From: a virus
Lineage: Duplodnaviria > Caudoviricetes
IMG/VR virus record: IMGVR_UViG_3300021387_001128
Span: 1,602 to 65,601 of that record
Reading direction: 5' to 3' (one strand)
DNA length: 64,000 nt
The notes under the pieces were generated by a model. The model did not search any database. It was not told the DNA's origin and saw nothing but the letters and a program-made list of their open reading frames with translations. Position 1 is the stretch's first letter. Each line of letters starts with the position of its first letter. Below, piece after piece: positions 15,062 through 62,141 of the stretch. The position numbers and the translations under genes are program-made.

Positions 15062-15074
15062 ACTCCCACCTCCT

Positions 15075-18842: not shown

Positions 18843-18863
18843 ATATCTCACTTCCTTTCTTTG

Positions 18864-28325: not shown

Positions 28326-29432
28326 TTACGAATAAGTTGGTTTATAGATAAATTTAAGTCTTGTTAACGCCATATCGGCGACCGGAGCGATATAAATTTC
28401 GTTGAGCTGGGCCACCATCGTGCGTTCCGTTCCGTTTCCTTCGACACGTTTCTTCAGCTCCAGGCTGTGTTTGTCTACAACCCTGGCAATCTGTATCCAT
28501 TCCCCGTTCAGGTAAATATGTTTGTCTGCGAAATATTTGGTAGCATCTGCCGCCGTTTCTTCTTCAAAGTCGTACAGCATATTGATTACATTAACCCTAT
28601 TGCTGTTGCTATACTGAACGTACAGATCCCGCACCGCAGGGAAAGCCGGCTCAAGAGACAGGAAGCCATAGTCATGATAAAGAAAGCAGATTTTTGTCTC
28701 GGCGCCGCCCTTCATTATGGTTCTGCCATTGATGGGATCGGTGTACAGGTATTGTCCTTCTTCGGTCGTTGCCGCCTTGGTCAGGCCGACAAACTTACAT
28801 TGTTCTCCGTTTGTTTTGTTGGTGATGTACACGCCGGACGGAGCGTCACCCGCAATCTCAATTCCTACAGCTGCAGGTTCGGTCCCGGGGTTCATCAGGA
28901 AAATGGTTGTGGGTTCAGTGATATCTTCTGAGCAGTCCGCTTCGGTTGGCAGGAGCATTGTCTCGCTCTCTACAACAGCAGTGTTACTCATGATATCTGC
29001 GTATTCTTTATCAGTCCTGGTGGAGTACCACACATCGCTTCGTGCGAACGGGTAATAAGCTTTGGCTTTAATAGTAATCAGACCGTTAAGATAATTTGTG
29101 AAGTCTTCTGTAACTTCGGTAATAACCACATGGTAGTAGCACCACGGCCGCCGTTGAAATACCAGCTTGCCAGATGATCCAACTTTGAATACAGAGTAGA
29201 TCTTTGCCATGATACCTCTGTCAATTCTCTCTTCTTCGAAGAAGCAGCGAAGGGTGAACTCCTTGGGCTGCCGTGTTGCTCCGTAAAAGTAACCGCCGTG
29301 ATGTCCGTCAAATGATTCTTCATGAATGTTGGATTGTGCCGGCCTGTAAGCGTAGGTGTCTTCCATCTCGGGAGCATAGTTTAGCCCGAGACTGGCAACG
29401 TCCAAACCATTGAAGGAAAAGCCGCCTTTCAT
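28326..29432 (-). CDS. Distal tail protein (Dit)
   Basis: Directly follows the tape measure gene; MKGGFSFNG...G..FYGAT..P.EF.L.CFF...GKLVF..RP..YY pattern. Confidence 0.75.
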   Translation of the reverse strand: MKGGFSFNGLDVASLGLNYAPEMEDTYAYRPAQSNIHEESFDGHHGGYFYGATRQPKEFTLRCFFEEERIDRGIMAKIYSVFKVGSSGKLVFQRRPWCYYHVVITEVTEDFTNYLNGLITIKAKAYYPFARSDVWYSTRTDKEYADIMSNTAVVESETMLLPTEADCSEDITEPTTIFLMNPGTEPAAVGIEIAGDAPSGVYITNKTNGEQCKFVGLTKAATTEEGQYLYTDPINGRTIMKGGAETKICFLYHDYGFLSLEPAFPAVRDLYVQYSNSNRVNVINMLYDFEEETAADATKYFADKHIYLNGEWIQIARVVDKHSLELKKRVEGNGTERTMVAQLNEIYIAPVADMALTRLKFIYKPTYS

Positions 29433-29559
29433 ATTGTTTCACCTTCTCTCTCTTCTCCTATACATCCCGCTTCGAACGAGACGATGTATACTGTTTTACA
29501 AAAGAACGTATACTGGTTAATAAAGGTTATTAAGTAATATATATAAAATACTGTATAAA

Positions 29560-29594
29560 ATAATAGACGGGAGAGGGGTGGAACCCCTCTCCCG
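29560..29594 (-). terminator. Hairpin/terminator after the tape measure gene
   Basis: CGGGAGAGGGG-5-CCCCTCTCCCG perfect 11-bp stem, then TCTATTATTTT on the minus strand. Confidence 0.6.
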
Positions 29595-29624
29595 AAATAA
29601 TCAAACAAGTTGTCAATCGGAATA

Positions 29625-32600
29625 TCAGAACGCATAACCAGCAAGGTTAAGACCGTTCTTGGACATTTGTTTTGTGAACGCCTGTCCGATTCGCTTTGCA
29701 ACTTCATCGTAATCTGCATCGTCCTTAAGCTCTGCCTGGTTAATCGTAATGTAGATGTCACCTACGTTAGTGTTGTTGGAGACGCCCACGTCAGCAGTAG
29801 GCAAAACGCCGGGGGATACATAAACATAGCTAAGCACATCTGTCAAATCCTGAATAGCTTTGGTGTCGTAAGCATCGAGGAAAGCTTCTGGTTGAGATTT
29901 TGTACCATCAACCCAGGCCGGGCCAGTATAATCTACAAGGCCACCATTAGCGTACTTGTTAATAACCGTGCTGCCAGCTTCAAAGAATGTGCCTTTACCC
30001 TTCTTTTTAGCATCGGCCATAGCCGCACTATTGGCAGCTGCGATAGTAGCTCCGTATCCTTTTCCTGCGTAGCTGACCAATTTGCCGTTTTCGTAGAATG
30101 CCGCAATCGCTTCTGAATAATGGGCTTTCGGATCTGCTGCACCGCCTGCACCGCCACCACCAGATCCACCGGAACCAGATCCGGAACCAGAGCTGGGTTT
30201 AGGCGGTTTATCCGACGGCAGGTCGCCATACTCATCCAATTCAGCAACGTTACTGTTTACAGTTTCCAAATAATTCTCTGCCGAGTTACTAACCCAACCT
30301 TGAGTCTGTTCCCAGGTTGTATCGTTGTTGCCAGTATAGTTATGAATCAGAGCAATAATATCACTAAGGTCTCCAACGATCTCTCTCTGCAGTCCGTCGA
30401 TTGAATACACGTAGTTCTCGATATCTGTCACCGCTTCGAACGTTGCATGAGAATCATCGAACGTTGCATCGTTAATCAAAGACTTAGTGTAGTTATCGTA
30501 CAGCTCGCCCCACTTATAAAGCATGGACTCCCGTCCGGTATCGGACGCATCCCTGTATTCATCGCTCTGCTTCATGTAATCCAGGAAGGACTCGCGGTTA
30601 GAGAAGGCTCCGATAAAATCTTCGTCTTCCCAGTAAGTCTCAGCCAAGCCTTGCATGCTGAGCCAGGTCTTACGCCAGTCGTTCTCCATCTTCTTGCGTG
30701 TCTCTTCAGTAGAGTTCTGATAACTCTTACTAGTAGCCTGCATGAATTTGATATATCGAGCGTAAGCTTCTTCATCAAACTCGGCCGTAATCGAGAAGGA
30801 GAGCATGTCATTTACTTCGCTCTGGAAGTTGTTGGCATCGGCTAAGAACTCGTTGAGATCTTCTTCGCCGGCTGTAACGTAATCGTTAAGAGCCGCAATT
30901 TCATCATCGATCGCTTCTTGCGCGGAAGCCACTTCTTGATCGGCGATCTCCCAGGAGAGCTCCTTCTGCAGATCTTCGATCTTGCGCTGGAGCTCTTTCA
31001 CATCTTTAGTGCGGCTCGGGTCCATCGCGATCAAAGCAAGCTGACGCTGATACTCTGCAAGCTCTTCCCATTTGTCTTCTTGGTTCTGGGCATTCTTGCG
31101 TGCGTTCAGCCGCTCGTTAATCAAAGCCTTCTCTTTGTTCAAGGCTTCTTGCTGTTTCTGGATATCCTTTTTAATCAGGTTCCATCTCTCCTGGTAATTC
31201 TTGCGGATTACATCGATCAGCTGATTTTGCAGATTGATCTCTGCGTTCAGCATGTTCTCTTCTTTTGCAATCCGGTCTTTAATCTCTTTGACAATCTCGT
31301 TCTCAAGCGCCATTCTGACCTGACGAATCTTCTCCGCATTCTGCTCCAGAAGCTTCGTGTTCTTTTCAATCTGGTTATTAACCTGAGCAAGAGCTTCTTC
31401 TTCTTTGCGGATCTCCTGTGTAATCTTGTAGTAGGTCTCTTCGTCGTTGTTGGCTTTAGCATCAGCAAGCAGCTTTTGCAGCTCACCGATATTGGTCTGC
31501 AAAGCGTTCCGCCGCTGAATCTGAGTCTCTTGCTCTCTGCCAAGCATGTAGCCGTAGTTGGTCAACTCACCGTTGTTTTGATAACGGGTCTGTTCATACT
31601 GCTCAAGTTTAATCTCGTGCTGGAACTGCTCGTCCACGCGGTTAAAACTCTCCATCAGCTTTTCCAGGCTGGCCTGATTAACCTGCTTGTTGAGTTTAAC
31701 CATCTCAAGTTCGGTTTGAGCGATACCTTCTCTTGCACTGAGAATCTTCTGGCGAAGTTGATCCCATGCGGTAGGATCGGTAACCGTGCCACTCTTAGCA
31801 TAGGCTTCAAGCCCGGCAAGAAGTTGTCTTTGCTCCTGTAAGCCGCCGGACATCATATCGCGTTGGTTTTTAAGAGTGTTGAAATAGGACTCTTCGTTAC
31901 CAGTCTCTTTATAGATCTCGGCCTGAGTCTGATACATCTTTTGAATGTGATCAGCATCGGCCGCTGCTCTGTCATAATCATCTGCAAGGTCGGCGACAAC
32001 GGATTGTTGCCAAGCTGCTTTGTTTTCAGCCATTGTGTTCATAACGTTGAGAATGGATTCTTCGTAAGCATCGACAGAGTCGCGGGCGTCGTACCAAGCA
32101 TCAGTATGATCCTGCAATCCGAATCCAAACTCATCTTTAAACCCAGCTTCTTCTCTTTCAATCTGATCAAGCACGGATTGCATTTCATCTCTGGCTTTAA
32201 CAAGATCGTCAAGCTGGCTGGCATAAGCAGTGTTTTGCTGGTTAAGCATACCGCGATACACCCATCCGTTGTTTGCCCGTTGGGCCATCTCAGCTCCCGT
32301 GCCGTAAAGGTTAGCATCGCTTACAGCTGTCGCTTGCGCGTGCTCAAGATCCTTTCCGACTTCGGTAACCATCGCGTTGTTAACATCGATCCACTTCTGG
32401 ATATTATCGTTTTGCAGATCAGCAATCTGTTCTCTGATTTCAAGCAGATTGTCTCTTGCTGCGATCCAGGACTCATCACCAAAGGTGGAGTTCTTCATCT
32501 GTTTGATCCAGTCTTTTTCCTGATCTTTAAGAACTGAGATCATAAAATCATTCTGATCCCTGGATTGATTCTGAATAGAGATCCAGTTCTCAGTCTGACC

Positions 32601-35600
32601 GAGCATCTGATACCGATTAGCTCGCTTCTCCAACAAAGAAGAGACGTGCTGTTCAGGTGTCATCTCGTTCTGATGTTGTTCTTCAATCTGCTGGATAATC
32701 TTATTGCGGAGTTCATCCAGAGAGTTCTGGAGATCCGCCATTGCTTCTTCAGCCGCATGAAGCGCATCAGTCAGCGCCCAGTAATCTTCGGAGTCATACT
32801 CCGTACCGGCGAGTTGATCCTGCAACTCCTGAATATGGCCTGCGTAAGCAGACTGCATATTCTGAATAGCAACTTGTTCATCCTGAAGAGACGCGTCGTA
32901 AGCATCGTAATCGTTCATAAAATCATAATGACTCTGGTTAGTCTGAATCATTGTGAGATTATGTTTTAATCTGTCGATCTCGTGCTTCTGTCTTTCGATG
33001 AGTTTTTGTGCGTCGGATTTACCGCCGCCGCCACCGCCACCACCGCCACCAGAATAACCGCTTGGTGTATTGGCAGAAGCAGACGAAGACGAGACACTGG
33101 CTTCGACATCGATTTGGCCGTGTTCGGCTCCGATCGATTTGATGATGTCGATCATGATCGTAGCGATATCACCAGCCATAGATTCTGCAGCTGCTACGTA
33201 ATCGGATTCAATAGATTCAAGCAAAGCGATAAACGCGCTCAAGTCTCCGGACTCGTTAACCTGTGTAACAACATCTACAACCTGATCAAGTGTAATCTTA
33301 TTTTCGCTGATTGCTTGGTTAATATCAGTCAATGCACCTTCGAGCATTGGTTTAAAATGCCCTTGACTAAACGTCTCTTGGGCATCTTTTTCCATAGCGT
33401 CGAGAGCTTCATCAAACTGTTTTTGTGTAAGCTTTTGAACATCTTTCCAATCATCTAATCCAAGGAACTGAGCAAGCAGTCCGCCTTCTTTAGCGCCTAC
33501 CTGTCCTGGCTTCTTGCCACGCATCTTCGATACTGCGGTCAGATTGTTCTGGAGAGTTTTAATGCTCTTGGTCCAGGCCGCAGATTGACGAATAGCATCC
33601 TTGCCACCTTTGGCAAAGTTAGCCATAGCTTCGGCCGCTTCATCGGTATGATCTCCAAGTTTATTAGAAAGCTTTACAGATTTACTCTCCCACTCAGCAT
33701 CAAGATCTTTTTGAGCCTTCTGTGCGCCTTGAAGAGATCCGTAATATTCTTCTACTGCTTTTGAAACGGCTTCATAATCAGGAGAATCTTGTGTAATATC
33801 GCCGATTGTGGCCATGGTATATCTACCACTGGCAGCTTGCTCCACAGCCATTGCGGCATTAAGATAGTTCTCCGGAAGCATAGAAGCATAATCGGCAATC
33901 ATAGCTTTACTGTTGTTCATGTAGAAGCCATTTTCACCAGTTAAGTTGCCAGCTCTCATTTGGTCAAGAAGCAGGTTTGCTCCATAGAACTTCTGATTCT
34001 CCGTTAATCCGGTAAATCCGTTAGACGCGTTTGCCATCCGCATATTGTAGTATTCAAGCTCATACGGATTATACACGTCCCGATCTTCGATTGGTGTTAT
34101 AGTGCCACCCGTAAAACCGGTAACTATTCCGTTTTGACGTGTCGCCATAAAGCCGGCCGCTTCTGCTTCTGCGAGAATGCGATTAGCTTCGGCTCGATTT
34201 GTACCGTAGTTTTGTTTATATGCTTCTTCGTATGCGTCAGCCTGGACTTGGTTCGCGGCCATCTGCGCTTCAATATCGTTGCGTGCTCTCGCCGCGAGAT
34301 CGGAATCTCCGAGCGCCGATTCAAACTCATCGTAATAATCTCTGTTGCCTGTTGCGAGATATTCTTGTGCTCTTCGTAAATCTTCTCCGTGCGTAGTAAC
34401 ATCTGTAATTTGGTTGGAAGCTTCCGCAACTGCAGCCGCAAGTGCCGCAAGGGCAGACTTGAAGGATTCTGCTTCGCCTGTAAAATCAAGTGCGTCTCCT
34501 TCAAAGCTGAACCCAAGATCTTTCATCTTGTTGGCAAGTTCAGGAGAAGAGTCAAGCAGAGCTTTCCAGTTATCTACCTGAGAGCTGCCTACAGAGTTAA
34601 TGAAATCTCCGAAGTTATCGAAGTTCTGGCCTTGAGAGAGAACGCTGAACAGGGAAGTAGCTGCGTTCTGAGTGCGGTTGCTGATATCGTACTGAACTTG
34701 CTGATAGGCCATGTTGGATTCAAGAGAATCAAACCGTCCCTGTTCCAGCAACCAGTTGTTATAAGCATCTCTTGCCGCAGTAAGGTCTCCGCTTTGTCTG
34801 GTTGCGACGGATTTAAAAATGTCGCCACCAGCCATCTGATCAAACGTCCTGGAAAGAACTTCTTGGAGCTGCGGACCAGCGTTGGTCCATCCCTCTTCCA
34901 GTTGTTGAGCCGTCAGACTCGTGATATCCGCTGTACCAAATGCTTGCTGTAATGCCCAGCCGTAGTTCTGTGCCACGTTCCCGGGCTGACCATTCGACAT
35001 TCTGGAGATATAACCAGTAAAACTGTCGAAGTCAGCGCCAAGGTTGACCATATCTTTCCAGACCTGATCGTTTTCATAGAGCTTGTTGAAATCGGCACCG
35101 AGAAGAGTATCGAATACGTCGCCTACCGGTATTCCGTAACCTTCTGGCGTATAGTAATCTCTGTTCAGGTGCGGGACAAAACTATTGGCAGTTCTGTAAA
35201 TAGACTGCAAATCATTTTCGTTAGCAACTTCTCTGGCGTTTTCAACCAGGTTATCATGACGCATCCGGTTGAGATTAATCAGAGACTCGTCATAAACAAA
35301 TGTTCCGTTTTCATATCGATAACCATTTGTTTGTGCAGCCTGAATAATTTGCTGTCTTGCTTCTTCGGTCTGAGATGTAACAAGTTCTTGTTCATATGTG
35401 CTGGCCTGAGCTGTGCGGCCAAGCTGTTGCCGCTCTCTGGCTTGTTGCACATACATATCCCGGTTCTGCAGGAATACGTTCTCGTCCGTAATGCCGAGAA
35501 TACTCATCGCAGCTTCATTCACCTGGGAATACGTGCCGCTGTAAAGCTTAGCAGTTTGCTGGCCGGATTCCATTGAAGCGGTTGTAATCTCTCTTAAAGC

Positions 35601-38600
35601 ATCAGCAATTTTAACCGTATTATCTCCGGATAAATCTTCGATAAGTCGAGTTGTGCCTTCAAGAATCTTCCCAGCTTGTTCAAGGTCGGCTATACCTTCG
35701 ACTTTAAATTGCAACTCAAAAGCTCGTTTTAAAGCCTGACCTTCTTCAGAAGCTTGCTGTCCAGGAGACATCTTCATGTACTGTGCGAGTTCAGGAGAAT
35801 AATCCATCACCGCGTTCCACAAAGAGTCATCCCAGAACTTATATCTTTCAGCCGCTTCGTTATAGTTGAGACCGGACTCTGCAATCTCTGCGGCTCTGTC
35901 TCTCAACTCTCTGTTTGTGTAAACAGGTGTAAAATCTGTACGAGCCGCGCCCGCGCTTACATTGCCGCCAACGAAATTCACGCTGACACCGGATTTATCT
36001 GAAGCACGAATATCAAATCCTAATGGAGAATATTGTTCCTGGATTTTTGCTATCGTTTCCTTTGGAACGTTTTCATATACTCCGGTCTCTTCGTTAAAGT
36101 AATCGGAAAGCCCATATCCCTTTTCGATCTGATCATAGATACTTTGCTCGAATTGGCTTCTTGCTGTGCTGTAAGATTGATTATACGCATTTAAAGCAGT
36201 AGCGTAGTTCTGTCGAACCTGATTTGGATCAATCTTTAAAGCAGATGCAATTGTTTGAATATCACTCTCATTTGGTTGAAGCTCAAGCATCTGCCAATCA
36301 TTCATTCGTGTAAGGCGTGCTTGCTGCAATCCAAGCTCGGCCGCTGTGTTCATATTGGTAGCAGTAAGCTCTTCAGGAGTGGACCCGTAAACCTGATTAA
36401 AAAGATAATCCGTTAAATCCTTTTGCGTGTATCTGCCTTTGCCTGAGTTTACACTTTCCCAAATGTTTATCAGTTCGGTATCAGATCCGCTGTTAATCAA
36501 CTCCAACGCATTTGCAAAAGCAACGTCTTCATTTGTTATGTCTGCGATATCTTTCGATGTTAACAAATGATACAATCCTGCGTACTCTCTGTCGTACTTT
36601 CGGTCTTTAGGTTTAATGTTTTTGTATGCGGCGGTTACGATATCCTGTGGGGATTGTTCCGTTACCGCAGAAGGAGTATTCTCTTCGACGTAGTTTGGGT
36701 TATTCTCTGCGGATTCAACTTCTGCTTGAATCTCGGCAGCGGCGTTGGTTCTAACCCAGTCGTTTAAATGCTCGCCTTTATGATTCTCAAGAAGCCGGTT
36801 TTTAATCGCGGCAGATAGTCCGGGTGTGTCGCTGAATCGAATATCAGTATTGTTTGCAAGATAAGTATCGAGCAAACCTTCTGCTTCTTTGTCAAGTTGC
36901 TCCTGTCTGACGTCTTCGTACCCTGTAAGTACATCAACATCACCTGCGACAACACGGGCAATACCCATCGCCAAACGCCATGGCAAACCTGCGCTAAGCT
37001 TTGTGTTTTTGAAACCTGCTTTAAAATCGCTTAAAAAAGTATTTGTCTCTGTGCCGTACGTTCTGGTTAACTCGTCCCAGTCTTGAGTTGAGAGAACTTT
37101 TTCCAAGGCATTGCTCTGATAAAGTGAAGCAACCAAAGAGTCAAACCCTTGGGCAGTTTCCTGATTGGAACTAATGTTATTTCCTTTGTAATCAATTAAC
37201 CCTTGATATCCAAGTATGTTTCCAAGAGCAACCGCAGTCGAACTTCCATCAGGCTTGTTTCCGTCGTGAGCCAACTGGTGCAGCCAGCCTTCTCTTCGCT
37301 CTTCGTATCCGCCAACAGATGAGCTGTCTCCGCTCATATATGTAACATACTTGTCGTATCCTTCTGTGCCGAAAAGAGAAGTTACAATTTCCTGCTCGGT
37401 CATACCAGCCATTTCAAGACCGGCAAAATTCGAAGCAATGGTCCTTAAAGCATCTTTATCTCCACGTTTTGCAGTGGCGACACTCGCGACGCGCTGATCA
37501 AGCTCACCGTTGAAAAGAAGCCCGGTAGGAGTTGATTCATTAATCTCTTTCGTTTTTTCAGCATATTCTTTTTCCGCGTCGCCGATTGCGATATCGGCAA
37601 GCGTTTTAGCAGATTTTTTATTTGCTTCATCAAGTTTTTGGACTTCTTCTTTCGCTGCCGACACAGTGGATTTCCAGCTGTCCAGCCCGGATGCAGCACT
37701 GCTAACGCTTGAATCAACGCCGCTGAAAGCAGCTTGAAGCGAAGCAAGCGCGGACGTTAAAGCATCGGTCTCTGAAGTGGAAAGGTTACCGTTTGTTTCA
37801 TCGTACTTTTTGCCAAGTGTCTCAGCTTTAGCAATCAGTGATTTATACTTATCGGTCGCGTCTTTATTCTTTTCGGTGAAATTATCGTATTGCTCCTGAG
37901 CGGAAACTTCCCGAATTTTAGGAGCTGAAGTCGTCGCAGACAAACCTTTACCGATCAATCCACCAATACCCATCACGCCGGCGGCCACAGCGACACCAGC
38001 TCCGATAGCAAGCGGTGCGCCGATACCAGGAATCTTAGAAGTAGCAATAATCGTAGTTACAGCGGCCACAGCAGCGCCAACAGCTAAGATCGCAGACAGC
38101 GATCCGCCAAGCACACCATTAAGCGCGGTGATCCCTTGAATAAGACCGGAGATAAAATCAATACTTCCTGTCAAAACATCGTTCGACTCAAGTCCCGCGA
38201 CCAGCTGATCCCAGGAGCTGCGGAGCGTATCAAACGAAGCAGCAAGACCTTGTGCAATAACCTGGTATTTACTCTCAGTAATCCCTTCGCTGTCGCCGGC
38301 CAGTCCAAGCAGCTCTTCGAACTTCGCGCCGCCATCTTCTCCAATGCCTTCCATCAGCGTGGTAAACATATTCGTCATACGTGTACCCGCGATAGCGGAA
38401 GTGATATTAGACTTCTGAACGTCGCTCATGTTCTGCCAGCCCGCCGCGATATCTCTCAGGATATCTGTTGCGGATCTGTAGTTGGCTCTGGATTCATCTG
38501 TGTAAAGATCAATCCCGGCCAACCCAAGTGCAGTCTCAACATCGGAAAGGGAAGTGGTCTCACCGTTCTGATCCCGCACAAACTTCTCTGTCGTAACTTT

Positions 38601-41600
38601 GCGGATACGGGAGAAGATCGTGTTCATCGCAGTACCGACCTGCGTGCCGCTCAGCTGCGTCATGCTGGTCATGACAGTCGCCATGGATACCAGCTCTTCG
38701 TAGCTTACGCCGGCAACCTTTGCGGATGCCGCAGACTTCTGCATGGCCTTGCCGATCTCGTCGGCTGTGGTTGCCGCGTTATCGCCAAGCGCAACCAGCG
38801 CGTCCATCGCTTCGGTGGAAGAATCCACCAGGTTGTTTTGCAATGCGGTAGTAATAATCTTGGTTGCCGCTTCAACCTTGATGCCGGCAACCTGAGAGAA
38901 CTTGATCACGTCTTCGGTCCGGGCCTGCACTTCTTCGTCCGTCAGGCCCTGACGATACAGAGCCGCTTCAGTAGAAGATACATTGGAGACAGAAGTATGA
39001 AGATCGACCGCAGTCTGGAGCGTACGGGAACGCACGTCAGACATCTGGTCATCCGTCTTCATTGTAATCGCCTGGATCTCGACCATCGAAGCGTTAAACT
39101 CTTTGACGAACTTCTTGGTCTCCTGTACGGCTTTATTGAAAATCTGCCGTCCGAAGCGCTGCATCACACGGCCGAGAGAACTTTCAACGGTCGTGAACAG
39201 CTGCTTTGTTGCCAGAGATGTGGTAGTTGCCTGTTTCGCAAATTCGTCCAGCCGCTCAATATCTTTGTTGTAATCTTCGTCTGTCATCAACCCGGCATCA
39301 TGCTTTTTGGTAACATTCTCCCGGATGGCTGCAATCTGCTCAGAATATTGTTTGGCCGCCTGTTCAAGTTTATTCTGCGGCATGAGATGGGATTCAAGCG
39401 AATCCAGTTGTTTGCTGAATGCAGTTTGGTTCTGCTTCTGCATGCCGCCGAGAATACTGTCACGCTTCTTCTTAATCTCGTCCAGGTCTTTACCGATGGC
39501 TTTAGCGTCATCTGTAAACTGATCTCTCAGATTCTTTCCGTATTTTTGATCTTTCGAAAGCGTGAAGAGCTGCTGCTGATCTTCGGAAAGCTCTTTAATC
39601 TTTTTATCCCACGCGTCCAGCGCTTCTACTTGCGCGTCATATGTTCCGTTAATCTTGGAGTCCTGTTCGGTAATGCTCTCAAGAAGATTGTGAGCTCTCA
39701 CAACGGAAGAATCGCTGAAATCCCTGCCGGCCTTTGCTACAAGGCCCGTCTCAGAATCAAGTAGCCGATCAATGCTTGTCTTTTGATCCGGAGCTAAAGT
39801 ATCCCAGAGAGCGGAGTTCTTGAAGTTCTGCAGTTTCCGCTCGTGAGATCTTGCAAAACTGTTGTTCCGGTTGAAATCAATTAGCGACTGTGGAACATCT
39901 TTAAGCTGCTGTTCGCTTCTTAAAATCTGGCCGAAAAGTTTGTTTGAAAACTCCTGCGCCGGCTGTATCAGTTGTGCAAACTGCGCTTGCGCAAGCTGGA
40001 GCATTGAATCAGACGGAGCATTGGGTGTCCAGCCAGGTGGAGTTGTTGGAGGCACAGGCGGAACCGGAGTCTGAGCGTATTGGTTTGGCGCGGTCGGCTG
40101 ATATCCTTTGTCGCTCATCCCGGCATGCTCGGATGTGGATTGTTCCGTCTTCAAAGGTACAGGACGCTCGTCTGGATGTTTATCCATATAGTCGTTCCAT
40201 GCCTTTTGATACTCTTCAAGGTCTTTCAGCTCAGCTCGCCTGGATGCTAAATATTCTTCTTTGGTTTTGCCGTGTGCTTTACCGAAGAAGCTTTCGAGCT
40301 CTTCTCTTGGCCTCTGTTCGTCTGTTTCGATGACTTTTTTAAGCTCGTTGACAGCCCACGAAGGATCGAAGTCGACACTGCTGATCCACCCGTTAAGCTT
40401 TTTCCGTTGAGCTTCCAGCGCGTCTCTCTCCGGATTCGCTGATTTTTGCGGAGCTTTTTGCTCTGCGGATGTTTTAATAATCTCTGTTTGCGCTTCGGTG
40501 ATTTTGCTCGCTTCTTCTGCGACTTCTTGTTGTGCTTCAATCTGCTGCTCGGCCTTTTGAATTTCAGCAGTCATATCCGGTACGTTAACATTTGCAATGT
40601 TCGGTTCCAAACTGCCGCCGCGTTGAATCTGAGCAAACCTGCTTCCAGCAAGAGCCTGCGTAATCTTTTGCGCGGTTTTTGTACCGATGCCTTTAATCTT
40701 GAGAAGTGGATCGAGATTTCCCTCGTTAATCGCGGAGAGCAGATCTGTCTCAGGCAAACCCATGACAGAATCGATCAAAGCGTCTTTGGATTTACCTTTG
40801 CCGAGTACGTTGCGAAGGATCTCCTTCGCTTCTTCTCTGGCGGTCGTTTCAGGCTGCTTTGCCGCAATGTTTTCCAGAATATCTTCTACTTCGAAGGGAA
40901 CCTGTTCTTGCGGCTCCGGAAATCCAGCCTTCACTTCGGCGGGCGTTTTCGGAGTTTGTTTGGGCTTTTGTTGTGTTTCGGCAATCCTCGCCGGAGTAGC
41001 GGAAGGCTGCTGCGCCTGCTTCGGAGGTTGGGTAACCGGAGGAGTTTGAGTAGGCGGCATAACGGGAGCAGAGCCAAACAAAGCATCAACGGGGACGCCT
41101 ATTGCATTCGCGACGTTACTAACCATCGCCTTCGTCTGGTCGTCTTTTTCAACATTCTCTCGTCTCAATCCGTTCTCGGTTAAGTAATCACGCCATGCAA
41201 AAATACCGGCTTCTCTCGCTTTGCGATCGTACTCGTAAGCATATGCGTTAATATCTGTAATCCCTTCGTCAATTAACTGCTTATCGATTTCATGCTCTGC
41301 TGCCTTTTGCAGCTGGGTAACAAAATCCTGTTCTTCTTGCGAAGGTGCGAGGTATCTGCCTGTCGCAATGTTGCGTTTTACATCTCTTGCCGCTTGGGTG
41401 AACCTCCCGGTCGCAGATTCCGGGTTTTTAATTGCGGGCAGGTTGTCAAAGATAGTATCCCAATCGTACTTCAGACTTCCGTCAGGATTTGTGCCTGCCG
41501 CCGGAAGGCCGAAATTCTGGGCATACATCCGGGTAAGAAGCTGTCCGGTAAGGGAACCGCTCGACATTGTGGGGAAAGCCAGCTCGTCGATATTATATTT

Positions 41601-44600
41601 ATTGAGCCGCTCCTGAGAAGCATCTGTCCATACCTGCTTTACTTGGCCGTCTTCATATACGGAATCAAGAGATTTACCGACCCAGTTAAAAATATTACCA
41701 AACGATCTGCCGTATTCTTTTACGGCTTTTTGATCAGGCGTGTCTTCCCATGTGTCGCCTGTTTTACCATGCACGGAAACGACGTCGTAATTGGATTCAA
41801 GATCCAGAATCGCTCTCGCTGCGGCGGTGCTGATCTTTGGATTCCGCAGCAGAGACATAACATCCATCGTTCTGGATGCTCTGCCCATCATAGGAGTATT
41901 CTTTGCCTGCTCCATGATGTAAAGCGCGATATCCTCCGGATTCCGCATATCAAAAGGTTTATCAGCTCTTTTGATACCGCCTTTGCTTTTAACTGATTCT
42001 TTTAAAGCGGCCTGCTCTTCCGGAGTTCGTCCGGCCATTTTCCAGATTTTTGCATTGTCTTCGTTACTGATCTGGAAAACGCGGGCCATCATCTGGTTAA
42101 ATTCTGTGCTGCCTTTGCCGCTCAGCCCGAACAGACCGTTAATATCCCCGTCAAAATCTTCGCCCTGAAGGGCTTCAAGAATAGGGGAACCCGGCCTGAA
42201 GTACAGGGCTTTGGGGTCCATCCCAAGCTGCTCCGCCATCTTCTGGATTTTAGGAGCCATGCTCTTGTCGCGGGCCAGGTTGCTCGCGACGATATTGCCG
42301 CTTATCGTGGCGGGATGCCGCACAATACCAAGCTGATCAAACATGGAACCCAAAGAGATAACGTCGTTATTTCCGAGTTCCAACTCTTCCATCTCTTTGG
42401 GAATCTTGACACCGGCTTTGCGAAGCGCGTTGTTAACAACGTTAATCGGCGCAGGGGCTGCCATATTCCAGGAGTATACTCCGTGCGGAAGAAGCCTGTT
42501 CCCCTCAGAGTAGGATTCGACCATGCTGCTCAGATGTCCACGGATAATGTTCTGAGATTCTTCAGAAGTCAGATCAACCGTTTGATCACCGCCGAAAAGT
42601 TCTCTGCGAATATATTGATCATCCGTAGACAGACGAGTCATTTCATCCATGAAGATCTTGTTGAAATAAGCATCTACAACAGGATCGCTGAACCCAGCAT
42701 TCATCGGGCCGTTCACAAGCTGCTTGGAAAGCCAGCGGCCGGATGTGTTGGATTTGCCATACGTGGTTTTCAGAGAGATGCCGAAACGGGAAACCTGACG
42801 GGATCTCATATCGTTGATCTCTTCCGGAGTCATCCCGGCAAACATCTGATTAAAGTTTTTAATATTGTTTACGTCTTCAATGATATCTGTATCCCAGGGA
42901 ATAATCAGGTCTTCTCCGTTTATCCCTGCACCTTGAATACGAAAATCGCCGTAACGATTCATGATATCTCTGCGCTGCTGCTCAGTAATACCATCTCCGA
43001 TCTTCGCAATCTCTTCTGCGGTTCTTGCGCTCTCGACAATCTGATCTGGATACTGTGTTTTAAGCGCGTTTAAATCCATACGAACATAGGTTGCTTTGCC
43101 GCCATAAGAACGGCCTTGGCCGCCTTCGTTAAACAGCCGGGCGCTGCCCCAGTTCGCACCATCCATATCCTTCCCGAAGTTGCCCACAACAACTTTGACG
43201 TTGGGCGTTCCATAGTCGCGCATAATCTTGTCGCGCATGGACTGCCCAAGGTTCGGGTCTGCGAGCATCTGCTCCGTTGTCGCGTTACCAGAGAACCCAA
43301 ACGGGATACCCCACAGCGTACGGAGATTCTCGCCTTCGGTCGCAGGCAGGTTCTGGTTATACAAACTCTTCGCAAAAGGTTTGTACTCATTGAAGCTGCC
43401 CATTGATGCGCCGTTCGCAAGAAGCTTCAGGCCGGCTTTAAGATGTTCTTCGTTAACAGGCCCTTTTGAACCAACCGGCTTTGGTTCAAGTCCGAGTTCA
43501 TAGCGGCCAAGATCTTCAATCAGATCGTCGCGCATAAACTCTGCGTGTGTCTTTCCTGCTCGGGTAAAGCTGTAATGATGTCCGTTGGCAACGTATCCTT
43601 CTCTGATCCGTTTGGCAAGGTCAGCCTGATATCGTTGGCTGTCTTCGTCTTTCAGATAAGGATCGCTCCATTTTGAATCATACTTAAGATAAATCGCGTT
43701 GTCGTTAAACTCGTTTTGTCCAGCCCTGGATGAATGAGTCATCTGAGAAAGAATGTCGTTCTCCAGACTGCTGGCGAGCGTAACAGTGTGGAAGTCATCA
43801 GGGCTGAAACGCTTCCCGCCTGAAGTTGTGGGCTTCGTGATTCCCTGAGCAGTTCTCCATTTACCGGTTGCCCGGTCCAGATAAACCGGATTGGCGCCGT
43901 TAATCTGAGCGCCGCCTTCCATCATGTCAAGGGTGTATTCTGCATACGCGCTCGTTCTGCGCCTGGGCGCCATGGTGATCGGGCCGGTGTAAATACCTGT
44001 CCCATGGTTCGGGTTAAAAGGCTGAATCCTATCGTAATACCCAGGGTTAATCCAGCTGCCGTAGGCATCGTGTAGCGCGTGGGCTGTGCGTCGGCCGCTG
44101 TCGAAATCAATATTGTTGCCGATTTTACGTTCGACTTTTCGCCATTGAGAAGGATCATCCGGGTTTGTCATCCCGAATTTGCGTTCCCCCATGACGGCGG
44201 TAGAAGCATCACCGAATACAAATCCGGACATCGCGTTAATGTGGCCGCGTGTCAGATTGGGATTGCGATAGAGCCCCCCGTTGCTCTTTGCGTACAGCCC
44301 GGCGCGAACAGCCGCGTCCTGCGCGAGGCGGTCTGTCTCTACAATCTTTTGCAGTGCGGAGATCTCGTCCTGCGTAAGCGGAGTGTTGTCGCCGGCTAAA
44401 GCGCCGAGTATCCGTCTCTGGGCAGGCGCCGCAGTAGGGATCGTTTTAAAAGATTCCGGAAACAGTCCCCGGAATGTAATCGCTTTTTGCGGCATGGCGA
44501 CAGCAGATCCGCCGGTAACAGAAGCCCGCATATATTGCGGTACGTAAATCGGCAGCTGCGAAGTGAGATACTGCTCCATCCGCTGGCTCGAAAAAGCATT

Positions 44601-45149
44601 TGGATGTGCGCTCTGGCGGGGTCCCATAATGGATTTATACTGCGGACTCTCCATAAACCGCGCAACGATATCTCCATCGCTCAGCTTCCCGAGTCCGCCG
44701 GCCATAGACATCGCCGTCTGTTTCAACCCGTTTCCAAGCTGGGTAAATACGCCTTTCAGCCCTTCGTTGAAAGTCTCCGTAACAGTCTTCTCAACACTTG
44801 CTGTAAGATTCTTTGCCATTGCCGTCGAGCTAATAAGATCTTTAACACCGGCTTTGGCAACTTCAACCTGTCTTTTGTAGGATGCTCCCAGCGCATCTCG
44901 CTCCTGCTGAGTAGAAGCTTTTTCATACGCTCTGGATGTTGCGGCAATGTGATTAAGGTTATCAATCCATTGATCGAACCGGGTGTTCATCGCCTGGTTA
45001 TATCCAGGAATACTGGCTGTGTCTCCTCCTGGACGGAAGTCTTCGGACTTCTTTTTGATTTGTTCTATTTTGTCTTCAATGGATTCTGCTTTTTCCGTAA
45101 ATTGACCATCGTCCAGTTGGACTGTTAAAGTTAAAAGTTCATTGTCCAT
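29625..45149 (-). CDS. 5174-aa tape measure protein with an N-terminal YonO/QDE-1-like two-barrel RNA polymerase domain and an HhH motif
   Basis: TP901/PhageMin_Tail-like core at about aa 2000-2260, TM segments at about aa 2340-2395, long coiled coils, C-terminal YANGG..TGPAWVDG...PEAFL; located upstream of Dit. Polymerase motifs: DG (D663), R680..GGK685, RHP (R944), DFDGD (aa 998-1002, nt 42144-42158). Confidence 0.85.
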   Translation of the reverse strand: MDNELLTLTVQLDDGQFTEKAESIEDKIEQIKKKSEDFRPGGDTASIPGYNQAMNTRFDQWIDNLNHIAATSRAYEKASTQQERDALGASYKRQVEVAKAGVKDLISSTAMAKNLTASVEKTVTETFNEGLKGVFTQLGNGLKQTAMSMAGGLGKLSDGDIVARFMESPQYKSIMGPRQSAHPNAFSSQRMEQYLTSQLPIYVPQYMRASVTGGSAVAMPQKAITFRGLFPESFKTIPTAAPAQRRILGALAGDNTPLTQDEISALQKIVETDRLAQDAAVRAGLYAKSNGGLYRNPNLTRGHINAMSGFVFGDASTAVMGERKFGMTNPDDPSQWRKVERKIGNNIDFDSGRRTAHALHDAYGSWINPGYYDRIQPFNPNHGTGIYTGPITMAPRRRTSAYAEYTLDMMEGGAQINGANPVYLDRATGKWRTAQGITKPTTSGGKRFSPDDFHTVTLASSLENDILSQMTHSSRAGQNEFNDNAIYLKYDSKWSDPYLKDEDSQRYQADLAKRIREGYVANGHHYSFTRAGKTHAEFMRDDLIEDLGRYELGLEPKPVGSKGPVNEEHLKAGLKLLANGASMGSFNEYKPFAKSLYNQNLPATEGENLRTLWGIPFGFSGNATTEQMLADPNLGQSMRDKIMRDYGTPNVKVVVGNFGKDMDGANWGSARLFNEGGQGRSYGGKATYVRMDLNALKTQYPDQIVESARTAEEIAKIGDGITEQQRRDIMNRYGDFRIQGAGINGEDLIIPWDTDIIEDVNNIKNFNQMFAGMTPEEINDMRSRQVSRFGISLKTTYGKSNTSGRWLSKQLVNGPMNAGFSDPVVDAYFNKIFMDEMTRLSTDDQYIRRELFGGDQTVDLTSEESQNIIRGHLSSMVESYSEGNRLLPHGVYSWNMAAPAPINVVNNALRKAGVKIPKEMEELELGNNDVISLGSMFDQLGIVRHPATISGNIVASNLARDKSMAPKIQKMAEQLGMDPKALYFRPGSPILEALQGEDFDGDINGLFGLSGKGSTEFNQMMARVFQISNEDNAKIWKMAGRTPEEQAALKESVKSKGGIKRADKPFDMRNPEDIALYIMEQAKNTPMMGRASRTMDVMSLLRNPKISTAAARAILDLESNYDVVSVHGKTGDTWEDTPDQKAVKEYGRSFGNIFNWVGKSLDSVYEDGQVKQVWTDASQERLNKYNIDELAFPTMSSGSLTGQLLTRMYAQNFGLPAAGTNPDGSLKYDWDTIFDNLPAIKNPESATGRFTQAARDVKRNIATGRYLAPSQEEQDFVTQLQKAAEHEIDKQLIDEGITDINAYAYEYDRKAREAGIFAWRDYLTENGLRRENVEKDDQTKAMVSNVANAIGVPVDALFGSAPVMPPTQTPPVTQPPKQAQQPSATPARIAETQQKPKQTPKTPAEVKAGFPEPQEQVPFEVEDILENIAAKQPETTAREEAKEILRNVLGKGKSKDALIDSVMGLPETDLLSAINEGNLDPLLKIKGIGTKTAQKITQALAGSRFAQIQRGGSLEPNIANVNVPDMTAEIQKAEQQIEAQQEVAEEASKITEAQTEIIKTSAEQKAPQKSANPERDALEAQRKKLNGWISSVDFDPSWAVNELKKVIETDEQRPREELESFFGKAHGKTKEEYLASRRAELKDLEEYQKAWNDYMDKHPDERPVPLKTEQSTSEHAGMSDKGYQPTAPNQYAQTPVPPVPPTTPPGWTPNAPSDSMLQLAQAQFAQLIQPAQEFSNKLFGQILRSEQQLKDVPQSLIDFNRNNSFARSHERKLQNFKNSALWDTLAPDQKTSIDRLLDSETGLVAKAGRDFSDSSVVRAHNLLESITEQDSKINGTYDAQVEALDAWDKKIKELSEDQQQLFTLSKDQKYGKNLRDQFTDDAKAIGKDLDEIKKKRDSILGGMQKQNQTAFSKQLDSLESHLMPQNKLEQAAKQYSEQIAAIRENVTKKHDAGLMTDEDYNKDIERLDEFAKQATTTSLATKQLFTTVESSLGRVMQRFGRQIFNKAVQETKKFVKEFNASMVEIQAITMKTDDQMSDVRSRTLQTAVDLHTSVSNVSSTEAALYRQGLTDEEVQARTEDVIKFSQVAGIKVEAATKIITTALQNNLVDSSTEAMDALVALGDNAATTADEIGKAMQKSAASAKVAGVSYEELVSMATVMTSMTQLSGTQVGTAMNTIFSRIRKVTTEKFVRDQNGETTSLSDVETALGLAGIDLYTDESRANYRSATDILRDIAAGWQNMSDVQKSNITSAIAGTRMTNMFTTLMEGIGEDGGAKFEELLGLAGDSEGITESKYQVIAQGLAASFDTLRSSWDQLVAGLESNDVLTGSIDFISGLIQGITALNGVLGGSLSAILAVGAAVAAVTTIIATSKIPGIGAPLAIGAGVAVAAGVMGIGGLIGKGLSATTSAPKIREVSAQEQYDNFTEKNKDATDKYKSLIAKAETLGKKYDETNGNLSTSETDALTSALASLQAAFSGVDSSVSSAASGLDSWKSTVSAAKEEVQKLDEANKKSAKTLADIAIGDAEKEYAEKTKEINESTPTGLLFNGELDQRVASVATAKRGDKDALRTIASNFAGLEMAGMTEQEIVTSLFGTEGYDKYVTYMSGDSSSVGGYEERREGWLHQLAHDGNKPDGSSTAVALGNILGYQGLIDYKGNNISSNQETAQGFDSLVASLYQSNALEKVLSTQDWDELTRTYGTETNTFLSDFKAGFKNTKLSAGLPWRLAMGIARVVAGDVDVLTGYEDVRQEQLDKEAEGLLDTYLANNTDIRFSDTPGLSAAIKNRLLENHKGEHLNDWVRTNAAAEIQAEVESAENNPNYVEENTPSAVTEQSPQDIVTAAYKNIKPKDRKYDREYAGLYHLLTSKDIADITNEDVAFANALELINSGSDTELINIWESVNSGKGRYTQKDLTDYLFNQVYGSTPEELTATNMNTAAELGLQQARLTRMNDWQMLELQPNESDIQTIASALKIDPNQVRQNYATALNAYNQSYSTARSQFEQSIYDQIEKGYGLSDYFNEETGVYENVPKETIAKIQEQYSPLGFDIRASDKSGVSVNFVGGNVSAGAARTDFTPVYTNRELRDRAAEIAESGLNYNEAAERYKFWDDSLWNAVMDYSPELAQYMKMSPGQQASEEGQALKRAFELQFKVEGIADLEQAGKILEGTTRLIEDLSGDNTVKIADALREITTASMESGQQTAKLYSGTYSQVNEAAMSILGITDENVFLQNRDMYVQQARERQQLGRTAQASTYEQELVTSQTEEARQQIIQAAQTNGYRYENGTFVYDESLINLNRMRHDNLVENAREVANENDLQSIYRTANSFVPHLNRDYYTPEGYGIPVGDVFDTLLGADFNKLYENDQVWKDMVNLGADFDSFTGYISRMSNGQPGNVAQNYGWALQQAFGTADITSLTAQQLEEGWTNAGPQLQEVLSRTFDQMAGGDIFKSVATRQSGDLTAARDAYNNWLLEQGRFDSLESNMAYQQVQYDISNRTQNAATSLFSVLSQGQNFDNFGDFINSVGSSQVDNWKALLDSSPELANKMKDLGFSFEGDALDFTGEAESFKSALAALAAAVAEASNQITDVTTHGEDLRRAQEYLATGNRDYYDEFESALGDSDLAARARNDIEAQMAANQVQADAYEEAYKQNYGTNRAEANRILAEAEAAGFMATRQNGIVTGFTGGTITPIEDRDVYNPYELEYYNMRMANASNGFTGLTENQKFYGANLLLDQMRAGNLTGENGFYMNNSKAMIADYASMLPENYLNAAMAVEQAASGRYTMATIGDITQDSPDYEAVSKAVEEYYGSLQGAQKAQKDLDAEWESKSVKLSNKLGDHTDEAAEAMANFAKGGKDAIRQSAAWTKSIKTLQNNLTAVSKMRGKKPGQVGAKEGGLLAQFLGLDDWKDVQKLTQKQFDEALDAMEKDAQETFSQGHFKPMLEGALTDINQAISENKITLDQVVDVVTQVNESGDLSAFIALLESIESDYVAAAESMAGDIATIMIDIIKSIGAEHGQIDVEASVSSSSASANTPSGYSGGGGGGGGGGKSDAQKLIERQKHEIDRLKHNLTMIQTNQSHYDFMNDYDAYDASLQDEQVAIQNMQSAYAGHIQELQDQLAGTEYDSEDYWALTDALHAAEEAMADLQNSLDELRNKIIQQIEEQHQNEMTPEQHVSSLLEKRANRYQMLGQTENWISIQNQSRDQNDFMISVLKDQEKDWIKQMKNSTFGDESWIAARDNLLEIREQIADLQNDNIQKWIDVNNAMVTEVGKDLEHAQATAVSDANLYGTGAEMAQRANNGWVYRGMLNQQNTAYASQLDDLVKARDEMQSVLDQIEREEAGFKDEFGFGLQDHTDAWYDARDSVDAYEESILNVMNTMAENKAAWQQSVVADLADDYDRAAADADHIQKMYQTQAEIYKETGNEESYFNTLKNQRDMMSGGLQEQRQLLAGLEAYAKSGTVTDPTAWDQLRQKILSAREGIAQTELEMVKLNKQVNQASLEKLMESFNRVDEQFQHEIKLEQYEQTRYQNNGELTNYGYMLGREQETQIQRRNALQTNIGELQKLLADAKANNDEETYYKITQEIRKEEEALAQVNNQIEKNTKLLEQNAEKIRQVRMALENEIVKEIKDRIAKEENMLNAEINLQNQLIDVIRKNYQERWNLIKKDIQKQQEALNKEKALINERLNARKNAQNQEDKWEELAEYQRQLALIAMDPSRTKDVKELQRKIEDLQKELSWEIADQEVASAQEAIDDEIAALNDYVTAGEEDLNEFLADANNFQSEVNDMLSFSITAEFDEEAYARYIKFMQATSKSYQNSTEETRKKMENDWRKTWLSMQGLAETYWEDEDFIGAFSNRESFLDYMKQSDEYRDASDTGRESMLYKWGELYDNYTKSLINDATFDDSHATFEAVTDIENYVYSIDGLQREIVGDLSDIIALIHNYTGNNDTTWEQTQGWVSNSAENYLETVNSNVAELDEYGDLPSDKPPKPSSGSGSGSGGSGGGGAGGAADPKAHYSEAIAAFYENGKLVSYAGKGYGATIAAANSAAMADAKKKGKGTFFEAGSTVINKYANGGLVDYTGPAWVDGTKSQPEAFLDAYDTKAIQDLTDVLSYVYVSPGVLPTADVGVSNNTNVGDIYITINQAELKDDADYDEVAKRIGQAFTKQMSKNGLNLAGYAF

Positions 45150-45282
45150 ACCTTGTGCTCCCTTCTATATAAAAATTGACAATCTATTTAAAACAGCATA
45201 AAATGCCAGTATGTCCAATGTCATGAAACACTTCGCTTGATAATAACCTTGAGAGATTAACTAAACAGATCGGAGAATAAGA

Positions 45283-45852
45283 ATGGAAAGATTAAACGAA
45301 CTCAAAGCAAAGCTCGATAAACAAATCAAACAAAGCGAGTTATTTATTGATAACGCCAAAGCTTTAAAGCTGATAGCTGATTCTGCTCTGAGAGAAATGA
45401 CAGATATCAGACTTAATCTGATAGCAATCCAAAATGAAATTGAAGATATATCTGCTCCGAAAAAAGAAGAGCAGACAACAAAAACAAAAATACGCGTACC
45501 GCCAATTATATGTAAAAAATGTGAATGTTGTTTCTTTGTTCAAGAAATACTAGCCCCTGATGAACTCCCTGGCCCATATATACCAGGCAAACCATATTTT
45601 TGCAGTCGTTGTCATACGATCAGCAAAGAATACACAGAGTATATGATATTTGCGGAAGAACAAAAAGCAAAAGGCATCATTGTGAATTATTTTTACGACC
45701 GACCGCCAAAGAAAGAGAGTGACGAATCAAACACTAAATCGGAAGTAATTTGCAATAACAACACTGTGCAGCCACCGGAAATAATGAGATACATGCAGGA
45801 AAAACCATTGCCGCCGGAGAACAATAAATGGGACGATGATTTACCATTTTAA
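45283..45852 (+). CDS. Hypothetical Cys-rich protein ending in an SSB-like DDDLPF tail
   Basis: 189 aa, GGAG RBS; CKKCECC...CSRC; C-terminal WDDDLPF; opposite strand to the tail operon. Confidence 0.6.
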   Translation: MERLNELKAKLDKQIKQSELFIDNAKALKLIADSALREMTDIRLNLIAIQNEIEDISAPKKEEQTTKTKIRVPPIICKKCECCFFVQEILAPDELPGPYIPGKPYFCSRCHTISKEYTEYMIFAEEQKAKGIIVNYFYDRPPKKESDESNTKSEVICNNNTVQPPEIMRYMQEKPLPPENNKWDDDLPF

Positions 45853-45869
45853 GAAGGGAGCAAAACAAT

Positions 45870-46079
45870 ATGAAGAAGCCTGAAAAGACACCTTTTGATC
45901 TCGGCTTTCCGAACGACGGCCCGGAGTACGACCCGGAGATGGATAACGAAACCATCGAACTGCCGGAGGATGTAGATGCCAAACTTCTCGAACTGACAAA
46001 GCCGCCGAAGAAGAAGAGCATCTACGGAGACGAGGATCAGAACGATCTGATGGATATGATCGACAAACATACAGATTGA
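45870..46079 (+). CDS. Small acidic hypothetical protein
   Basis: 69 aa, AAGGGAG RBS. Confidence 0.55.
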   Translation: MKKPEKTPFDLGFPNDGPEYDPEMDNETIELPEDVDAKLLELTKPPKKKSIYGDEDQNDLMDMIDKHTD

Positions 46080-46136
46080 CATTCTCCCTGTTCTGTGCCA
46101 CAATATCTTGTATTTTAAGGGCAGGGGAGTGATTAA

Positions 46137-46382
46137 ATGAGAGGATTAGAATGCCCGATCTGCCATACGGATCAACACCAGCCGCGCTACGAGCAGTACG
46201 GACTCTTCGTCTGTCAGTCCTGCGGCACAGTGCTGGGGTATCTCTGTAAGGGCTGCGACCGTGTTTACCTTGAGAATCATTTGATCCTTCATGGTGACGC
46301 TCAGGTCTGCAAGTTCTGCGGCACGCCGCAGTGGGGTTACACCGAATACGCACGAAATAAAAAAAGGGGAGAGATTGCATGA
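46137..46382 (+). CDS. Small zinc-ribbon protein
   Basis: Four CxxC pairs (CPIC, CQSC, CKGC, CKFC); GGGGAGTG RBS. Confidence 0.65.
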   Translation: MRGLECPICHTDQHQPRYEQYGLFVCQSCGTVLGYLCKGCDRVYLENHLILHGDAQVCKFCGTPQWGYTEYARNKKRGEIA

Positions 46383-46394
46383 TCTCTCCCCTTT
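46363..46394. terminator. Bidirectional terminator between convergent genes
   Basis: AAAGGGGAGAGAT-6-ATCTCTCCCCTTT perfect inverted repeat. Confidence 0.7.
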
Positions 46395-55718: not shown

Positions 55719-55793
55719 TGGCTCTGCGAGCTGGATTCGAACCAGCAGCCGTCCGGTTAACAGCCGGATGCTCTACCGTTGAGCTACCGCAGA
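55719..55793 (-). tRNA. trnN: tRNA-Asn (GUU)
   Basis: TCTGCGG TA GCTC AACGGTA GAGC A TCCGG CTGTTAA CCGGA CGGCT GCTGG TTCGAAT CCAGC TCGCAGA G CCA: full cloverleaf, GTT anticodon, G discriminator, encoded CCA. Confidence 0.95.
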
Positions 55794-61993: not shown

Positions 61994-62043
61994 AAACCGC
62001 AAAATTAAATAAGGAGCATAGCTCCAGGAAAGGAGGCACTCTC

Positions 62044-62139: not shown

Positions 62140-62141
62140 AC

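Follow-up and report, generated by a model that had tools for sequence, protein, structure and literature searches.

The window analysed here is a stretch of 64,000 nucleotides from a virus of the Caudoviricetes (IMG/VR record IMGVR_UViG_3300021387_001128) and covers nearly the whole of a 65.6-kb viral contig. On its minus strand, at 29625–45149, lies one uninterrupted open reading frame (ORF) that starts with ATG and contains no stop codon within 15.5 kb. Its predicted product, P0001, is a tape measure protein of 5,174 amino acids that carries an RNA polymerase (RNAP) module at its N-terminus and has not a single cysteine. An earlier sequence-only reading of the same DNA had proposed a tape measure protein fused to a polymerase of this general kind, and several of its particulars are taken up below.

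The identity of the protein as a tape measure protein of the TP901 type is solid by profile comparison. Residues 2017–2365 (38055–39101; all features of the protein given here lie on the minus strand) match the NCBIfam model TIGR01760 (tape_meas_TP901) with a score of 103.7 bits against a cut-off of 28.8 (E 1e-29), residues 2049–2255 match the Pfam model PF10145 (PhageMin_Tail) with 99.4 bits against a cut-off of 33.2 (E 3e-28), and 13 PHROG tape-measure families match the protein as well. The sequence-only reading had placed a TP901-type core at about residues 2000–2260, had noted transmembrane segments and had separated the core from the polymerase by two proline-rich linkers, and each of these is found. 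The putative membrane segments are a pair of hydrophobic stretches, rich in glycine and alanine, at residues 2339–2400 (37950–38135). The linkers bound a region at residues 1362–1705 (40035–41066), the first, rich in proline and glutamine, at 41022–41066 and the second, proline-rich, at 40035–40070. The same region holds a weak helix-hairpin-helix resembling RuvA domain II, LKIKGIGTKTAQKI, at residues 1483–1496 (40662–40703), for which both the RuvA-domain-II and the helix-hairpin-helix scores are below their cut-offs. This element is conserved in the closest subfamily only (P0003–P0013), and it was rejected as a family-wide module because it is confined there. Beyond the membrane segments, residues 2401–5174 (29625–37949) make up the long ruler part, largely helical and charged with runs of glycine encoded at 33024–33050 and 30141–30191. 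Scans with Pfam, PHROG and NCBIfam detected no enzymatic domain in this ruler part, and those with Pfam and NCBIfam found no metallopeptidase in P0001.

The N-terminal part is built from four successive regions. Residues 1–320 (44190–45149) form a helical region that is conserved in the family, coiled-coil-like over about residues 1–200 and a helical bundle thereafter; no known fold was matched to it, and a Foldseek search with the N-terminal model returned no significant match. An alpha/beta domain at residues 322–607 (43329–44186) follows, then the predicted two-barrel core at residues 571–1225 (41475–43439), which comprises a first double-psi beta-barrel (DPBB-B), a connector of about 130 amino acids, a second barrel (DPBB-A), a long helix resembling a bridge helix and a putative trigger-loop region. 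C-terminally, the module is extended by helices at residues 1226–1340 (41130–41474), a part that was modelled less confidently. The alpha/beta domain weakly resembles the N-terminal domain of QDE-1, in a match that is collinear with that of the core, and with it the polymerase module exceeds the span of its motifs and covers about residues 320–1330. The sequence-only reading had looked for the polymerase at residues 450–1300, which is the right location and too short a span.

Polymerase motifs, fold and conservation

The motifs quoted in the sequence-only reading are all present at the positions it gave. KDMDGANWGS (residues 660–669, with D663) and GQGRSYGGKAT (677–687, with R680 and K685) together provide the DPBB-B motifs MDG(A)N and QGR(680)..GGK(685)AT (residues 660–687; 43089–43172), whose basic residues putatively face the active site. 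GIVRHPAT (941–948; 42306–42329) contains the RxP motif of DPBB-A, R944-x-P946, and DFDGD (998–1002; 42144–42158) is the predicted metal-binding triad. By our estimate a lone DxDGD is expected about 0.1 times by chance in a protein of this length, so that the motif by itself proves little.

With residues 400–1400 as the query, an exhaustive phmmer search over 1.84 billion representatives identified 49 clusters (50% identity level), of which 29 reached E<1e-30. With few exceptions the cluster members are 3,700–6,000 amino acids long and carry the match at a similar offset, and the short ones look like fragments from contig ends. The homologues are drawn from NCBI, ENA, Logan and JGI assemblies, some occurring on 3–4 contigs, and the fused architecture is found on contigs of up to about 151 kb, one complete genome included. 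Across homologues of 24–69% identity, ten positions are conserved at 90% or more (D998, D1000, G1001, D1002, Q678, R680, K685, R944, P946 and N957). The aspartate triad is unchanged in 39 of 39 aligned homologues, and G1001 is replaced by serine in one. Taken together with the fold described next, this conservation is beyond chance. As judged from these comparisons, dozens of independent assemblies share the fused architecture, and the polymerase, complete-looking and under purifying selection, forms one covalent chain with a genuine tape measure protein.

The fold was predicted with AlphaFold2 for residues 560–1340 from an alignment of 26 sequences, giving a predicted local distance difference test score (pLDDT) of 81.9 and a predicted template modelling score (pTM) of 0.77. 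The significant matches listed by Foldseek for this model against the Protein Data Bank (PDB) are all two-barrel RNAPs, headed by QDE-1 (E 9.5e-7) and P74-26 gp62 (E 8e-4) and followed by RDR2, P23-45 gp64 and crAss-like phi14:2 gp66. The model has two DPBB domains and the overall core fold of the QDE-1/YonO clade. After the DPBB-A strands it predicts a long helix (model positions 456–480) and a helical hairpin, through which the alignment with QDE-1 passes. Between the barrels, the connector is modelled as ordered (pLDDT 85–95), and it aligns with YonO. Searches at the sequence level gave no such result: no polymerase family in Pfam, PHROG or NCBIfam was matched by residues 1–1500, and searching the PDB sequences by phmmer and with the family profile returned coiled-coil noise only. 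On the predicted structure, this genuine tape measure protein bears at its N-terminus a two-barrel RNAP that belongs to the QDE-1/YonO clade.

The relationship to YonO is visible at the level of profiles. A trimmed alignment of the family (39 sequences, residues 560–1340) was compared by hhalign with an alignment of seven members of the YonO family, namely SPbeta YonO, the two free paralogues of G001 (a complete relative, described below), the partial gene of the window itself and the homologues from Enterocloster, Thomasclavelia and phage c-st. The two profiles matched with a probability of 96.5% (E 9e-10) over 281 columns, in an alignment that spans the DG motif of DPBB-B, the R..K pair, the connector, RxP and DxDGD; R680 and K685 align with the R..K pair of YonO, and the downstream motifs with its RsP...DnDGD. 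A reversed-sequence control gave a probability of 0.1%, and the family profile against SPbeta YonO alone gave 57%. Another alignment of the family compared by hhalign with single YonO paralogues yielded nothing significant, the trimmed family-against-family comparison alone being so, and single-sequence comparisons do not resolve which YonO branch is nearest. Since phrog_8308 and PF05183 are unmatched and the link is between profiles only, the family is best described as a distant sister group of the YonO family and not as a member of it. On these alignments the fused polymerase represents a branch of the YonO/QDE-1 clade that has diverged deeply.

The sequence-only reading had called the domain “YonO/QDE-1-type”, a label that is upheld by the structural match to QDE-1 and the profile match to YonO. 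It had also suggested structure prediction, a search for homologues of like architecture and a check on the acidic residues: the two-barrel fold, the giant homologues and the invariant aspartates above are what these gave.

Genomic setting and YonO-type relatives

The tape measure gene sits among virion genes of the same orientation. Downstream of it are a Dit-like gene (28326–29432, minus strand), as the sequence-only reading had it, with a weak Sipho_tail match below the cut-off (E 0.0012), and then a gene for a Tal-like protein of 2,392 amino acids (21131–28309, minus strand) with a Prophage_tail match (E 3e-11) and a YomG_N domain. Genes for TerL, the portal and the major capsid protein lie upstream in the same orientation. 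The upstream tail genes, one with a weak match to tail chaperones and one probably for the tail tube, are interrupted by genes on the plus strand, and the immediate upstream neighbour of the tape measure gene is not a tail chaperone but a small plus-strand cassette (45283–46382). TerL has its best cultured relative in Clostridium phage c-st (30% identity), and of the 144 phage records that it matches, most belong to phages of Bacillus, Lactococcus, Clostridium or Clostridioides.

The cassette, which with its signals extends over 45176–46394 between the tail-chaperone region and the tape measure gene, is preceded by a near-consensus sigma-70-like promoter (TTGACA-17-TAAAAT, 45176–45204) and closed by a strong bidirectional terminator hairpin (46363–46394). 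It contains three plus-strand ORFs (45283–45852, 45870–46079 and 46137–46382), two of them with CxxC zinc-ribbon motifs, and one has a weak TFIIB zinc-ribbon score below the cut-off (E 7.6e-5). Given that the cassette has its own promoter-like sequence and a bidirectional terminator, transcription of the tape measure gene seems to begin separately, as a unit of its own. A plus-strand gene for a Pif1/Dda-like helicase occupies the corresponding position in G001. At the other end of the tape measure gene, a minus-strand ORF of 110 amino acids (29429–29761) overlaps its 3′ end in another frame and ends at the start of the Dit-like gene; no family match was found for it, and it may be spurious or a short linker gene. 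Further along the minus strand, adjoining ORFs of 1,110 and 1,258 amino acids (11789–18851) match consecutive parts of phrog_14959, a family of 2,494 positions and unknown function, and from these matches they look like a single protein split in two. A tRNA gene (55722–55793, minus strand; 70.2 bits) lies within the block of head genes and is the sole Rfam family at its gathering score in the window; no hammerhead ribozyme reached the Rfam threshold in 61900–62200.

Near the end of the window, at 62676–63998 on the plus strand, is the N-terminal half of a free YonO-family RNAP gene (first 441 residues; phrog_8308, E 1.8e-47), which runs off the window and is transcribed divergently from the virion genes. 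It shares 54% identity by BLASTP with an 859-residue protein of G001, its orthologue. G001 is a complete relative of 150,780 bp that encodes a tape measure-RNAP fusion of 5,658 amino acids together with two free YonO-type genes. The 859-residue paralogue (L008:1056-3635, with the motif DYDGD) scores above the Pfam cut-off for RNA-dependent RNA polymerases and opens a block of plus-strand genes. The other, of 942 residues (L009:6536-9364, with DVDGD), is an orthologue of SPbeta YonO, with 33% identity over 92% of the protein (E 2e-112). The free gene of the window and both of those in G001 match the YonO family models and count as members. Each of the five IMG/VR records that carry the fusion has one or more phrog_8308 genes, and there are two each in the complete G001 and the 77% complete G004; among 14 control genomes, B. 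subtilis was the only one with such a gene. The presence of three two-barrel polymerases in the gene content of G001 suggests a three-polymerase cascade.

The genome of the phage is large, at about 140–150 kb. Scanning IMG/VR with one homologue (P0017) gave no match, and scanning it with a broader alignment gave only four loci on three other records.

Proposed delivery with the tail and competing explanations

There is a clear precedent for a polymerase in this position. In the Thermus phage P23-45, the N-terminus of the 5,002-residue tape measure protein gp96 is an active two-barrel virion RNAP (Chaban et al., 2024, Nat Commun 15:317, PMC10770324). The sequence-only reading had stated that it knew of no described fusion of this kind, a statement that gp96 contradicts. 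The protein is present at full length in P23-45 virions, acts as a promoter-specific transcriptase of pre-early genes and, 5 min post infection, interacts with a pre-early stretch of 9 kb, within which gp64, a second RNAP that is not part of the virion, is encoded (PMC10770324). In the model of Chaban et al., transcription takes place at the tape-measure pore, concurrent with DNA entry (PMC10770324).

It is likely, at a probability of roughly three in four, that the protein described here is likewise a tape measure protein with a complete single-chain two-barrel RNAP, at about residues 320–1330, which is delivered by the tail to transcribe the first-entering genes. The case for delivery is drawn from P23-45 gp96 as an analogue and from the behaviour of tape measure proteins, which occupy the lumen of the tail and are expelled from it upon infection. 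Packaged there as part of the tape measure protein, the polymerase would leave the tail just ahead of the DNA. The ruler part might then form or join a conduit through the envelope, inserted in the membrane, with the proline-rich linkers keeping the polymerase attached to it. From there the polymerase could transcribe the first genes to enter, independently of the host RNAP. Among these genes there would probably be the free YonO-type gene at the head of the block on the opposite strand, and the free YonO paralogue and the true YonO orthologue may subsequently take over later classes of genes.

The distribution of cysteine bears on the same question. Over the first 1,400 residues, 36 of the 39 family members (homologues among P0002–P0042) have no cysteine and the other three have one each, whereas the free YonO homologues have 14–26 and cysteine makes up 0.3–2% of the neighbouring virion proteins. 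There is also none in the 5,002 residues of P23-45 gp96 (L018:17288-32296); cysteine is not mentioned in the paper on that phage (PMC10770324). This scarcity fits travel through the tail and the envelope, probably in a partly unfolded state and with later refolding, and the absence of cysteine may prove to be a signature of proteins that are threaded through tails. As a simple sequence feature, such a signature could help to flag ejected enzymes in other phages.

Several observations weigh against delivery as outlined. The source contig is 47% complete according to CheckV, and the early region is missing from it. No cultured relative came to light when residues 400–1400 were compared by tblastn with 50,697 GenBank phage records, which gave no match, and prophage copies were absent in two scans of species-representative prokaryote genomes. 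Unlike gp96, which is flat and lacks a clamp, the model retains a connector of about 130 ordered residues between the barrels, the length reported for QDE-1, so that it is not obvious how a tail tube could lodge three such domains or let them through. Delivery would fail altogether if a protease cut the polymerase off at the linkers during assembly, or if the domain worked only inside the producing cell, and this possibility is considered below.

The enzyme could be active and yet mainly mechanical in its role, a membrane-tethered motor that pulls the genome of about 150 kb into the cell by transcription in the manner of T7 RNAP, with gene expression secondary. The flexible proline-rich linkers would tether the domain to a ruler that inserts in the membrane, the genome is large, and transcription concurrent with DNA translocation has also been proposed by Chaban et al. 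(PMC10770324). We nevertheless think it unlikely, as the virion RNAP of P23-45 covered only the 9-kb pre-early region, which does not fit the pulling of a whole genome. A motor is also compatible with tail delivery of a transcriptase, and sequence does not discriminate between the two.

Release of the polymerase before infection, the possibility raised above, draws on the two long linkers rich in proline and glutamine that separate the modules, and some tape measure proteins do undergo processing. It is an improbable outcome all the same, since the fusion has been kept in all full-length homologues over deep divergence, which would be costly if the linkage had no role, and since the depletion of cysteine covers the polymerase part, as expected of an exported segment. 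The full size of gp96 in virions points in the same direction (PMC10770324). It is very unlikely that the domain makes another product, such as replication primers, or carries out RNA- or ssDNA-templated synthesis. QDE-1 and RDR2, its best structural matches, do use RNA or ssDNA templates, but its nearest relatives at the sequence level belong to the YonO family, annotated as DNA-directed RNAPs in SPbeta-like phages, and its nearest counterpart in function, gp96, transcribes from specific promoters. That the domain is a relic devoid of activity, kept only as a plug in the structure or as a spacer for length, is so improbable that we reject it: even where overall identity drops to about 25%, the basic residues and the metal-binding triad are either invariant or conserved at 90% or more. 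A metagenomic contig might raise the suspicion of an assembly chimera or of two genes mistaken for a single one. This is next to negligible here and is rejected, because the 15.5-kb frame has no stop and the architecture recurs, in giant homologues with the domain at the same place, in dozens of clusters whose sequences come from four data sources independent of one another.

The tail-delivered transcriptase can be set in a broader scheme, which we offer tentatively and which may well not hold in full. A large group of uncultured phages of about 110–150 kb with SPbeta- and c-st-like genes would have fused a YonO-like RNAP to the tape measure protein independently, would run a cascade of three polymerases (the injected one, next an early free YonO paralogue and last the late YonO orthologue) that from the first minute does not depend on the host RNAP, and would illustrate that loss of cysteine is a general signature of threading.

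Comparison with known systems

The closest analogue, gp96, resembles P0001 in many respects. Each is a tape measure protein of giant size (5,002 and 5,174 amino acids) with an N-terminal single-chain two-barrel RNAP that contains DFDGD, at 779–783 in gp96 (PMC10770324), and in both the polymerase begins about 320 residues in, the minimal active fragment of gp96 being 327–1124 (PMC10770324) and the module of P0001 spanning about 320–1330. They are alike also in having membrane segments in the ruler, a separate free two-barrel RNAP in the genome and no cysteine. There are differences as well. The tape-measure cores belong to different families, and the predicted fold of P0001 is closer to QDE-1, RDR2 and gp64 than to gp96, the structure of which is flat and clamp-less with a connector of 67 disordered residues (PMC10770324; PDB 8h2m), in contrast to about 130 residues predicted to be ordered in P0001. 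Homology searches told the same story: hhalign of the family profile against residues 1–1300 of gp96 gave a probability of 1.6%, and against gp64 also less than 2% (both as single sequences), 8h2m was not recovered by phmmer or profile search of the PDB, and the best BLASTP match to gp96 (E 0.017) lies in the C-terminal ruler part, far from the polymerase. Membership of P0001 in the gp96 family was rejected, there being no sequence similarity in either the polymerase or the ruler. The lack of detectable similarity to gp96, together with descent from a YonO-related lineage, indicates that the fusion probably arose independently of gp96, in a different group of phages.

The principle of a polymerase fused to a tape measure protein has already been published (PMC10770324), and the value of the present case therefore lies in breadth, evolution and test cases and not in a new principle. 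Fusions of the gp96 type are also present in P74-26, G20c and TSP4 (Oshimavirus; PMC10770324), and a polymerase fused to the tape measure protein has been shown by experiment in one small group of Thermus phages only; in a literature search we found no description of tape measure-RNAP fusions outside Thermus phages. What is new here is a YonO-related lineage of such polymerases, the free YonO-type genes alongside them and the near-total absence of cysteine. A second lineage, on a different tape-measure family and with at least 49 clusters (50% identity level) in metagenomes, suggests that the strategy is neither an oddity of thermophiles nor the outcome of a single evolutionary event. It also links the fusion to the genetically tractable world of SPbeta and YonO, and suggests that phages carrying the fusion may employ cascades of several polymerases.

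Other systems share individual features with P0001. The eukaryotic RNA interference polymerases QDE-1 and RDR2 are the best structural matches, in the catalytic core and weakly in the N-terminal domain that precedes it, but their sequence identity is 10–12% and their biology is different. Both crAss-like phi14:2 gp66 and the virion RNAP of phage N4 are polymerases within large proteins that are ejected, although neither is a tape measure protein. The N4 enzyme is moreover T7-like and not of the two-barrel type.

The comparison with SPbeta YonO (839 amino acids, phrog_8308) combines divergence with common ancestry. YonO is a free cytoplasmic enzyme with 14 cysteines, whereas the P0001 domain is fused to a tape measure protein, has no cysteine and has about 320 extra residues at its N-terminus. 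The domain is too diverged from YonO to be detected by phmmer, Pfam or PHROG. There is nevertheless homology at the profile level over both barrels and the connector, with all four motifs aligned, and the phage background is itself SPbeta-related, in that TerL and the tail genes of the YomG_N type match phages of Bacillota.

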